Assembly: GCA_000146465.1 (NCBI GenBank)
Contig: CP001947.1
Direction: 5' to 3' (one strand)
Length of the DNA: 64,000 nucleotides
This document shows, piece after piece, positions 14,525 through 63,210 of this stretch. Made by a program: the position numbers and the translations under genes. Numbering within the stretch: the first letter of the stretch is position 1; the number at the start of each line of letters is the position of its first letter. The notes below the pieces were generated by a model. That model was not told the origin of the DNA. It made no database searches and was given only the letters and a program-made list of their open reading frames with translations.

Positions 14525-15413
14525 ATGGTAAGTGGCACATGGTAATTTTAAGAGTAATGCAAAGGGGACCAGGAACTACCACAAGAACTTCCAGGTGAAG
14601 AGAAGAAGAAGACGAGAGGGCAAGACCGACTACAAGCACAGAACCAATATGATTCGACAGGATTCCAACTCATACGGGTCTGTGAAGCACAGGCTGGTTG
14701 TCCGGATTACAAAGAGCCGGGTGATTTGCCAGATCACAGGAGCCTACATGGATGGAGACCGAGTGATGGTGTATGCAGACTCGTCTGAGCTGAAGAAGTA
14801 TGGAATCAACTTTGGGCTTACAAACTACTCTGCAGCATATGCAACTGGATTCCTGATTGGAAGAAGGGCACTGACAGCATTGTCTCTGGATGGAGTATAT
14901 GGGCCCAAGGAGATTGACGGGACATACAGTATTACGGAGGATGTTGATGGAGAGAGAAAGGCGCCCAAGGTGTTCCTCGACATTGGACTTGCAAGGTCCA
15001 CAAAGGGAGCAAAGGTGTTTGGAGCAATGAAGGGAGCATCTGATGCAGGACTGAACATCCCACACAGCGAGGTGAAGTTCTATGGGTACCAAGAGGATGG
15101 GAGCTTTGATGCAAAGGAGCTGCACGACAGGATTTTTGGATACAACGTCTCTGAGTACATGCAGAAGTTGCGGGACAGTGATGAAGAGAAGTACAAGACC
15201 CAGTTTTCAGACTATATCAAGAAAGGCATCTCGGCCGAGGACATTCCACAGATCTACAAGAGTGCTCTGGACAAGATTGCATCAGACCCATCGAAGGAAG
15301 CAAGGGAAGTGAAGGACTACTCTTCGCTTAAGAAGTACCGGCCGGTTCGACTTACATATGAGGAGCGCAAGGAGAGGATACAGGCCAAGCTTTCCACGAT
15401 TGAGAGCGAATAA
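14525..15413 (+). CDS. RPL5: 60S ribosomal protein L5 (uL18); exon 1 is ATG 14525-14527, a 25-nt intron spans 14528-14552, and exon 2 is 14553-15413
   Basis: The ORF-track protein (from GTG 14532) is RPL5 ([15 protein letters not shown]...). In that frame a stop lies immediately upstream and there is no ATG. ATGGTAAGT at 14525 and TTTTAAG ending at 14552 restore the frame to give [28 protein letters not shown]. Confidence 0.85.
14528..14552 (+). other. Spliceosomal intron of RPL5, 25 nt: GTAAGTGGCACATGGTAATTTTAAG
   Basis: GTAAGT donor immediately after ATG, TAATTTT branch-like element, AG acceptor, frame preserved. Confidence 0.75.
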
Positions 15414-15511: not shown

Positions 15512-15583
15512 GACGGTGTGGCGCAATGGTAGCGCGTCGGATTCCAGTCCCGAAGGTTCTAGGTTCAAATCCTAGCTCCGTCA
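15512..15583 (+). tRNA. tRNA-Trp (anticodon CCA), 72 nt
   Basis: Hand-folded cloverleaf. D-arm GCGC/AATGGTA/GCGC, anticodon loop TTCCAGT, T-arm CTAGG/TTCAAAT/CCTAG. Near-identical to eukaryotic tRNA-Trp. Mismatches at acceptor 6:67 (U.U) and anticodon stem 31:39 (A.C). Confidence 0.7.
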
Positions 15584-39385: not shown

Positions 39386-39523
39386 TCCCTACTTCTGAGA
39401 GAAAACCAAGATAAATTAATTACAACTGTGAACCAATAAAAACACTCTTTCTCTCCTTATTAATCAAATTCAAAAAGAAAATCCATGTTATTCAGGATCG
39501 CAGGGCTAAGTAAAGATGTTTAT

Positions 39524-40068
39524 TCAAGACGAGACTGCTCTGTTCGACAAGTTAAGTGCCTCTGCCTGCTCGGCAAGCTCTCGGGCTCTTTGCTCATCGG
39601 CCTTTCTCTTGATTATGCTATCTTTCATGTGGAATCTGTGCTTGAAAAGATGGCCCTTTGCCTGCTTGTAAAACACTCGGAAGTCTTCCTTGGTGATCTC
39701 TCCATTGGCCCTCATCTCCTTCAGCATCTTCCTCATTGCACGAATCTTCTTCATCCATAGCTCCTTCCTTGGCATTCTTGCATTGGCCGTACCAAAGCGC
39801 TTTCCAGGCCCCATGTGCCTCCCCTTCTTCTTGGCTGCCAGGCGCTTTCGGAGTCGTCCTCTGCTGGTGTGCTTGTCCTGCTTCATAATAATCACATTGT
39901 CTTGTATCAGCTGCCTAATCTGATCCCGAGTGGTTGCTCCGTTGAGCCTCTCAATTTCGTTGTTATCCAACCAAAGCTTCTTCTTCCCACATCCTAGGAT
40001 GTCTGCTGCCAAACGCCTGACTCTCTCCTCGTTCGACCTTCAAATTAGAAATGATCCATCACTTACAT
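39524..40068 (-). CDS. RPL19: 60S ribosomal protein L19e; exon 1 is AT at 40068-40067, a 29-nt intron spans 40066-40038, and exon 2 is 40037-39524
   Basis: The ORF-track protein (TTG start) is L19e but lacks the conserved N-terminus. AAAATGTAAGTG on the minus strand gives AT|GTAAGT...TTTGAAG|G. Splicing completes ATG and yields MSNEERVRRLAADILGCGKKKLWLD, matching the L19e N-terminus. Confidence 0.8.
40038..40066 (-). other. Spliceosomal intron of RPL19, 29 nt, sitting inside the start codon: GTAAGTGATGGATCATTTCTAATTTGAAG
   Basis: GTAAGT donor begins at the G of ATG, CTAATTT branch-like element, AG acceptor, frame restored. Confidence 0.7.
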
Positions 40069-40089
40069 TTTTAGGGTGCAAATTTTTCC
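40069..40089 (-). promoter_or_regulatory. AAATTT/CCC upstream module of RPL19 (GGAAAAATTTGCACCCTAAAA before ATG)
   Basis: Read in sequence. Nearly identical to the RPL14 module at 53015-53034. Confidence 0.5.
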
Positions 40090-40152
40090 GGGCTTTTGCC
40101 TAAAGGCCTGATCAAACAACTCTCCAAAAACAAGATTTATTCGTCCGAGTCT

Positions 40153-61966: not shown

Positions 61967-62890
61967 TTAATGGGAGCAGAAGGGCTTTCTGCTGAGATTG
62001 TATATTAGTATCCCCACAATACTTATGGCTAATCCTGCATAGTTCAAACTGCTTAGGGTGATATCTTTTGTTACTATTGCATAAAAAATAATTATCAGCT
62101 CCTTAACAATCCCTGCAACACTTAGAAACACAACACCGGTTTCCGAAACAAGCATGAACTCTGCACATAGTAGCGTAAATGATAGGACCCCGCAAAGAGA
62201 AATATACCCAAAATTTCGTAGGGCAGCATCAAACGTGTTGAAAAACCTAGATGTTGCTATCTCCATGAGACCTTCAACATGCAAAGAAATTAAGAGGAGG
62301 AGGAACGATATGGGAAGGCAAAGGTCCCTTATGGTTACAAGAATTCCTTCCTTCCGGACTTCCTGATTTCTAATAAGGTATTGGACAAACGCCCATCGGA
62401 ACCCTGCCATCAAAGAAGCAAACGAGATGGTTCCGAATCCAATAATATCAAAGCTTGTGTTTTTTATTGACGTGAGAAACACTCCCACGCCAATGGTGAA
62501 TATCGTCAGAAAAAACGTTATCGATGGTTTCTCGATCCCAAGTGCAAATCCAAATAACAGAATAAACACCGGAGAAGAAGACTTCACCATTGTGTAGAAT
62601 GCAAGGGTTGCCGACCTTAGAGATATGGATGAAAGGCCTATGTCTGTGGCTCCTGCAAGGGCACATGGAAACGAAGGCCCAAAGTAATTAGGCTTTGGAG
62701 CTTTTTCCTTCTGAAACCTCAGGGCTGTGGATGCTCCGAAAAAATGGATCAGGTTCTGCATGGACGCCTTGAACAAGGGAAAGGAGAAATTGTATGTCTT
62801 TTTGGAAAGCAGAAACGATGTTAGATATCCCAGGCTTAATGACAGAACATAATACATGAGCACTAATCCCAGTACTCTGATTCTGTTCAT
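61967..62890 (-). CDS. Drug/metabolite-transporter-superfamily membrane transporter, nucleotide-sugar/triose-phosphate transporter-like
   Basis: 307 aa with about 9-10 TM helices and a TPT/NST-like C-terminal region (KELIIIFYAIVTKDITLSSLNYAGLAISIVGILIYN). Confidence 0.5.
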   Translation of the reverse strand: MNRIRVLGLVLMYYVLSLSLGYLTSFLLSKKTYNFSFPLFKASMQNLIHFFGASTALRFQKEKAPKPNYFGPSFPCALAGATDIGLSSISLRSATLAFYTMVKSSSPVFILLFGFALGIEKPSITFFLTIFTIGVGVFLTSIKNTSFDIIGFGTISFASLMAGFRWAFVQYLIRNQEVRKEGILVTIRDLCLPISFLLLLISLHVEGLMEIATSRFFNTFDAALRNFGYISLCGVLSFTLLCAEFMLVSETGVVFLSVAGIVKELIIIFYAIVTKDITLSSLNYAGLAISIVGILIYNLSRKPFCSH

Positions 62891-62998: not shown

Positions 62999-63017
62999 TG
63001 TTTTTTTTCCTAGGCCC

Positions 63018-63210
63018 TACCTCTCAAGCCAATCGGCTTTGATCAAGTGTAGTATCTGTTCTTGCCAGTGTAAGAACTGGCATTATCCGTAAGGATAAAT
63101 TCATCGAATTTTTGGATGGCAGGGTGATGTAGAGGAGCTTGAGCGCTTGCGTTTCGGCCAATCTACTTGAGGTCTGCAGGCTTCTGGGCTGTAGAGCCTA
63201 GGAAAAGCCG
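63018..63210 (+). ncRNA. U2: U2 spliceosomal snRNA
   Basis: GATCAAGTGTAGTATCTGTTCTT at 63041-63063 is identical to the conserved U2 5' region, including the GUAGUA branch-point-interacting sequence. Stem I is AAGCC/AATC/GGCTT. Stem IIa is GTTCTTGCCAG..TAAGAAC..TGGC. Canonical Sm site AATTTTTGG at 63107-63115. 3' stem-loops, then a T7 run at 63211-63217. The 5' and 3' ends are approximate. Confidence 0.8.

Follow-up and report, generated by a model that had tools for sequence, protein, structure and literature searches.

The window, the whole 64,000-nucleotide stretch analysed here (contig CP001947.1 of GenBank assembly GCA_000146465.1), contains, besides RPL19, three genes whose products exactly match entries of the microsporidian parasite Encephalitozoon intestinalis ATCC 50506 (ADM11703, ADM11707 and ADM11710), and it therefore corresponds to chromosome VI of this organism. 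The gene order RTC, ribulose-phosphate epimerase, ..., RPL19, Erv1, TFIIB, S18 and L36e matches that of E. cuniculi chromosome VI. RPL19 is transcribed from the minus strand, on which its 5' end reads ...ggaaaaatttgcaccctaaaaATGTAAGTGATGGATCATTTCTAATTTGAAGGTCGAACGAGGAG... or, at greater length, ...GGAAAAATTTGCACCCTAAAAATGTAAGTGATGGATCATTTCTAATTTGAAGGTCGAACGAGGAGAGAGTC.... The spacer between Erv1 and RPL19, from stop codon to ATG, is ~85 nt, a degree of compaction typical of Encephalitozoon, and an AATAAA polyadenylation-like hexamer lies close behind the Erv1 stop at about 40136-40141 (minus strand). The features at the RPL19 locus are listed here in the direction of transcription.

40074..40087, minus strand: upstream signal AAAAATTTGCACCC, AAATTT-like plus CCC-like, recognized in the sequence and ending 5 nt before the RPL19 ATG
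40067..40068, minus strand: coding part of RPL19 exon 1, 'AT' (start-codon bases 1-2), from the sequence and a layout common to seven lineages
40038..40066, minus strand: RPL19 intron, 29-nt GT-AG spliceosomal, phase 2 in codon 1, GTAAGTGATGGATCATTTCTAATTTGAAG, from the sequence, orthologous introns and simulations
40061..40066, minus strand: RPL19 5' splice site GTAAGT (extended GTAAGTG), complementary to Encephalitozoon U1 snRNA ACUUAC and invariant in 7/7 lineages
40042..40048, minus strand: RPL19 branch-site motif CTAATTT, of which TAATTT is invariant in 7/7 lineages
40038..40039, minus strand: RPL19 3' splice site AG, the first AG after the branch motif, from the sequence; orthologues have AAG, TAG or CAG there
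39524..40037, minus strand: RPL19 exon 2, from the start-codon G to the stop TGA (39526-39524), from the restored reading frame, Pfam, the E. cuniculi chain and ADM11708.1

The RPL19 ATG occupies 40068-40066 and its G is also the first base of GTAAGT, with the intron bounded by GT at 40066-40065 and AG at 40039-40038. At the 3' end the intron reads AAG^G (^ marks the splice junction), the first base of exon 2 being G40037. Joining AT to this G gives ATG TCG AAC GAG GAG AGA GTC... (MSNEERVRRLAADILGCGKKK...), the start of a 171-aa open reading frame ending with TGA at 39526-39524; the string across the splice junction is CCCTAAAAATGTCGAACGAGGAG. The original prediction had placed a GTAAGT donor at the G of the ATG, followed by a 29-nt intron whose acceptor AG precedes a G that restores ATG in frame, with the junction at 40067/40037; all of this is borne out, and the junction coordinates are exact. 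AT^GT...AG^G is the only split of the segment that satisfies the GT-AG rule. The alternative ATG^TA...GG^ yields an identical mRNA, and the choice between the two is made by the GT-AG consensus, since RNA data alone could not make it.

The RPL19 intron has the hallmarks of the short class of Encephalitozoon introns, including GT-AG termini, GTAAGT, a branch motif near the AG, a suitable length, restoration of the reading frame and a consistent pattern among orthologues. Members of this class are 22-76 nt long and are mostly located at the 5' ends of ribosomal-protein genes (PMC3629993, PMC4313915), a range that includes the 29-nt RPL19 intron; for E. intestinalis, 36 spliceosomal introns are listed, 23-76 bp in length (Pombert et al. 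2015, PMC4313915). The complementarity of the 5' splice site was judged against the published ACUUACC recognition motif of Encephalitozoon U1 snRNA (Belkorchia et al. 2017, PMC5499648). By analogy with the yeast UACUAAC, the branch adenosine would be A40045, which lies 7 nt before the intron's 3' end. Besides having GT-AG, GTAAGT and a branch site near the AG, the RPL19 intron, like other members of the class, lies at the extreme 5' end of a ribosomal-protein gene and brings in a stop codon when it is retained. It differs in phase: most short-class members, and the introns in the window's RPL5 and eL14 genes, are phase 0 just after the ATG, whereas that of RPL19 is phase 2 inside it.

The upstream signal is of the class typical of microsporidian ribosomal-protein genes, and this AAATTT/CCC class is enriched in the window, with six occurrences compared to 1.4 expected. 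The same string is listed as AAAAAATTTGCACCCTGAAA for E. cuniculi L19, itself marked '(intron)', in the supplement of Peyretaillade et al. 2009 (PMC2803860). With only 5 nt separating the signal from the ATG, the 5' UTR would be very short and the first exon of RPL19 tiny. At the other end of the gene, an AATAAA overlaps the RPL19 stop codon (39519-39526, minus strand, TGAATAAA).

The identity of the spliced product is clear. It matches both the N- and C-terminal Ribosomal_L19e domains of Pfam, PF01280 (77.3 bits) and PF25476 (108.5 bits), against a gathering cut-off of 25 bits for either domain, and PF01280 spans eL19 residues 5-54. It can also be aligned over its full length to chain 7qep_M9, the eL19 of E. 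cuniculi (residues 1-171 on 1-171, E=5.9e-98; deposited protein P0002), to which it is 89% identical; the sequence of the 7QEP chain derives from annotation and is not independent proof of residues 1-9 in the mature protein. The exact 171-aa spliced sequence has been deposited as ADM11708.1, KAL7345603.1, KAL7347551.1 and KAL7349511.1, all titled '60S ribosomal protein L19 [Encephalitozoon intestinalis ATCC 50506]'. The suggestion that the restored N-terminus is the conserved one of L19e is upheld by the orthologues described below and by identity to ADM11708.1, from which the spliced product does not differ at all. No contiguous reading of the DNA yields M-S-N-E-E, and the deposited entries must therefore join across this segment; ADM11708.1 presumably uses a join over the same 29 nt.

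Annotations of related species show the same arrangement. RPL19 of E. cuniculi GB-M1 (chromosome VI, AL590446), E. hellem and Ordospora colligata resembles that of E. intestinalis in the gene itself, in synteny (Erv1 upstream, TFIIB and S18 beyond) and in intron layout. The NCBI gene ranges in E. cuniculi, E. hellem and O. colligata are 547, 547 and 545 nt for proteins of 171, 171 and 172 aa respectively, which corresponds to annotated introns of 31, 31 and 26 nt; these differ in their interiors from the 29-nt intron of E. intestinalis. The start-codon intron of RPL19 is real and already known, being annotated in the E. intestinalis genome and in sister species and listed in the literature for E. 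cuniculi.

RPL19 5' ends were compared at the syntenic Erv1-RPL19 locus of seven lineages, namely E. intestinalis, E. cuniculi, E. hellem, O. colligata and three Logan assemblies (SRR29713747, SRR21023581 and SRR21633403). The Logan assemblies are Encephalitozoon/Ordospora-like, keep the Erv1-RPL19 synteny and encode eL19 proteins 77-80% identical to that of E. intestinalis. All seven have the layout AT^GTAAGTG ... (C/G)TAATTT followed by 3-4 nt ending in AG^G, and the search for a phase-2 start-codon intron in related RPL19 genes, which had been proposed as a check, is thus positive in every lineage. The upstream signal, AAAAATTTGCACCC(T/C)(G/A)AAA, is nearly invariant among the orthologues. 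Intron lengths are 29 nt in E. intestinalis, 31 nt in both E. cuniculi and E. hellem, 26 nt in O. colligata, and 25, 30 and 27 nt in SRR29713747, SRR21023581 and SRR21633403 respectively. All three residues modulo 3 occur among these lengths, and the interiors are not alignable to each other; mixed lengths and unrelated interiors between fixed splice signals are the signature of noncoding sequence. The RPL19 genes of Tubulinosema ratisbonensis and Cucumispora dikerogammari are both contiguous and have no intron, and among the microsporidia sampled the intron is therefore clade-restricted.

The segment immediately downstream of the intron has the opposite character. In codons 2-9 there are 72 synonymous and 41 nonsynonymous codon differences over all pairs of the seven lineages, and E. 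intestinalis and E. cuniculi differ by four synonymous and no nonsynonymous changes. By this comparison, these codons, which are upstream of any possible in-frame start, behave as coding sequence.

If the intron is retained, the RPL19 RNA reads ATG-TAA, and the second ATG encodes only MDHF*; an in-frame TGA (40043-40041, minus strand) lies directly upstream of exon 2. A bacterial-type start exists only at codon 10, a TTG that opens a 162-aa reading frame (39524..40012), and the first in-frame ATG of exon 2 is codon 52. The gene call in Logan ERR13302946 (P0001) likewise shortened RPL19 to the 162-aa TTG-start product. The unspliced gene reads M* in all seven lineages, including the two whose introns are divisible by 3 in length. 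The claim that the gene has only a TTG start without splicing is correct for an ORF finder using the bacterial code, but in a eukaryote the alternative start would be the AUG at codon 52, and the TTG itself is present in only two of the seven lineages. Given that the unspliced RNA presents AUG-UAA and offers no usable in-frame start before codon 52, only the spliced mRNA makes functional eL19, and splicing would thus be needed for eL19 in E. intestinalis.

These data bear directly on the simplest alternative, in which there is no functional intron, translation begins at the TTG of codon 10 or the AUG of codon 52, and the intron-like string is a coincidence. Both the mechanical ORF call and Logan P0001 give the 162-aa TTG-start protein such a reading would favour. 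However, codons 2-9, upstream of the TTG, are conserved as protein, and most of their changes are synonymous; codon 10 reads CTT, TTA, CTG or CTA in five of the seven lineages, and a start at Met52 would remove the whole of the PF01280 N-terminal domain. The intron motif, moreover, is invariant in the seven lineages and does not arise in simulations: the composite ATGTAAGT-N5..40-TAATTT-N0..3-AGG occurs once in the window and in none of 200 first-order Markov simulations of it. We regard this alternative as extremely improbable, and as effectively refuted by the comparative data.

The core of the intron pattern (GTAAGT...TAATTT..AG) is found twice in the window compared to 0.06 expected, and both copies are at ribosomal-protein start codons behind an AAATTT...CCC signal. 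GTAAGT itself is present 12 times on the two strands, compared to 19 +/- 4 in the simulations, and three of these 12 hexamers are real 5' splice sites. The depletion may mean that cryptic 5' splice sites are avoided, although statistically it is not convincing. Two other intron-like matches, of the GTATGT type, were found at 62792-62845 (plus strand, 54 nt) and 34124-34058 (minus strand, 67 nt); as they are without GTAAGT, TAATTT and the ribosomal-protein promoter context, they were dismissed as chance occurrences.

Two further introns, together with RNA genes, are present elsewhere in the window.

14525-15413, plus strand: RPL5 (uL18), Pfam Ribosomal_L5e 235 bits
14528-14552, plus strand: RPL5 intron, 25 nt, GTAAGTGGCACATGGTAATTTTAAG, phase 0 directly after the ATG, behind a AAATTTGCAGCCCC signal
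15512-15583, plus strand: tRNA-Trp(CCA), ~100 nt downstream of the RPL5 stop
53014-52982, minus strand: 5' part of the eL14 gene, 106-aa product
53011-52982, minus strand: eL14 intron, 30 nt, GTAAGTGAGCTTCTTTTTGGCTAACTTTAG, directly after the ATG (phase 0), behind AAATTTGCCCTAAAA
59750-59822, plus strand: tRNA-Arg(ACG)
63017-63209, plus strand: U2 spliceosomal snRNA, Rfam RF00004, 83.5 bits, full length, with T-runs on its flanks

Unspliced RPL5 reads MVSGTW*, and the intron of its E. cuniculi counterpart L5 is known and is reported to be among the least efficiently spliced, at about 5%. The spliced 106-aa product of the third intron-containing gene is identical to AHL30120.1 (Eint_061145), which was deposited as 'uncharacterized'. 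A Pfam search with this product gave no match, and AHL30120.1 matches the eL14 chains in ribosome structures from microsporidia (7qep_M4 ECU06_1215; 6rm3 eL14); the GenBank name of Eint_061145 thus undersells an eL14. In the RPL19, RPL5 and eL14 introns alike the predicted branch A is 6-7 nt from the intron end. The canonical GUAGUA box for branch recognition is present in the U2 snRNA, and inspection of this RNA revealed no complementarity to TAATTT beyond that box.

The reading we favour, with a probability of about 0.94, is that RPL19 of E. intestinalis has a canonical 29-nt U2-type GT-AG intron after the second base of its start codon. Transcription would probably start a few bases 5' of the ATG, just past the AAATTT/CCC signal, as suggested by the 5' UTR of 2 nt measured in E. 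cuniculi, and exon 1 would be only a few nucleotides long, with AU at its end. U1 would pair with GUAAGU, and U2 with the branch site CUAAU, which lies 7 nt before the 3' AG; splicing would join AU to G to form an AUG in frame with SNEERVRRLAA... and hence the full 171-aa eL19. That this splicing takes place in E. intestinalis is extrapolated from RNA-seq in E. cuniculi, in which all annotated introns were confirmed to be spliced (PMC3629993). The text and supplements of Grisdale 2013 contain no per-gene splicing value for L19, which is shown in a figure only.

How efficient such splicing might be is a separate matter. For 30 of 37 E. cuniculi introns, fewer than 50% of transcripts are spliced, and for 22 the figure is below 20%; all of these introns carry stop codons or shift the frame if retained (PMC3629993). 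Short microsporidian introns 'directly adjacent' to the start codon have been described, and in Spraguea lophii there is no detectable splicing of such introns (Campbell et al. 2013, PMC3749934). By analogy with these two species, splicing efficiency at E. intestinalis RPL19 could be very low, and the E. cuniculi RNA-seq suggests that many RPL19 transcripts probably keep the intron and cannot be translated. The proposal that splicing is obligatory for translation therefore stands in one sense, as AUG-UAA is present in 7/7 lineages, but it does not extend to efficiency, since most short E. cuniculi introns are removed from less than 50% of RNAs (PMC3629993). 'Obligatory' here means required for a productive mRNA, not efficient.

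Poor splicing also raises the question of whether the RPL19 element is a pseudo-intron in decay, spliced seldom or not at all, with eL19 made by read-through as proposed for S. lophii, whose transcripts kept six short introns adjoining start codons (PMC3749934). The mean splicing of short E. cuniculi introns, below 20% (PMC6349667), would fit with this. Read-through is impossible at RPL19, however, with ATG-TAA in 7/7 lineages and a shifted frame as well in the five whose introns are not divisible by 3 in length. Both splice sites (GTAAGT and AG) and the branch motif are strictly conserved while the interior drifts, and spliced reads were seen for all annotated E. cuniculi introns (PMC3629993); we consider this explanation very improbable.

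A further possibility accepts the intron as real and supposes that its position in the start codon is kept as a regulatory gate, in which AUG-UAA blocks downstream initiation and the spliced fraction sets the output of eL19. In its favour are the presence of AUG-UAA in 7/7 lineages and splicing in E. cuniculi that is low and gene-dependent (PMC3629993), and start-stop elements are described as translational modulators in other eukaryotes (bioRxiv 10.1101/2021.07.26.453809). Against this, AUG-UAA arises automatically wherever GTAAGT follows AT and its conservation needs no extra selection, the literature consulted records no regulated change in the splicing of RPL19, and Grisdale et al. ascribe low splicing to an inefficient, reduced spliceosome (PMC3629993). 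Such a gate is unnecessary to explain the RPL19 intron, and we think it unlikely.

Introns in yeast ribosomal-protein genes are hundreds of nucleotides long and efficiently spliced, unlike the 29-nt RPL19 intron. The first coding exon of both RPL19A and RPL19B of Saccharomyces cerevisiae is nonetheless 2 nt, 'AU' (Ma & Xia 2011 Table 2, PMC3226532), and by that table the same gene family would have the same two-nucleotide first coding exon as in E. intestinalis, whether through common ancestry or through parallel gain. The first coding exon is also 'AU' in RPL43A/B, and is 'A' in RPL20A/B (PMC3226532). More generally, start-codon introns are enriched in ribosomal-protein genes, with those that disrupt the ATG being relatively rare (Nielsen & Wernersson 2006, PMC1626468), and Yarrowia lipolytica has a 'start codon' intron class (PMC13309789). 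RPL19 resembles these eukaryotic examples in the clustering of introns at or in the start codon and in the over-representation of ribosomal-protein genes (PMC1626468, PMC13309789), but the usual start-codon intron is phase 0 after the ATG whereas that of E. intestinalis RPL19 disrupts it. A literature search for introns interrupting or splitting the start codon returned only the Yarrowia paper as relevant, and PMC8476143 makes no mention of L19 or start codons in microsporidia. One could speculate that the AU^G intron of RPL19 marks an ancient fungal position kept in Saccharomyces and in Encephalitozoon/Ordospora/Nosema through extreme intron loss, possibly because AUG-UAA gates eL19 given an inefficient spliceosome and weak RNA decay, although we find this doubtful.

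The RPL19 locus gives no information beyond the deposited and published record, and its intron is another case of the known tiny microsporidian introns at the extreme 5' ends of genes. Prokaryote-style or naive ORF callers shorten RPL19, and intron-aware models are needed for microsporidian ribosomal-protein genes. The retention of tiny introns in spite of genome reduction and poor splicing is already a well-framed question.
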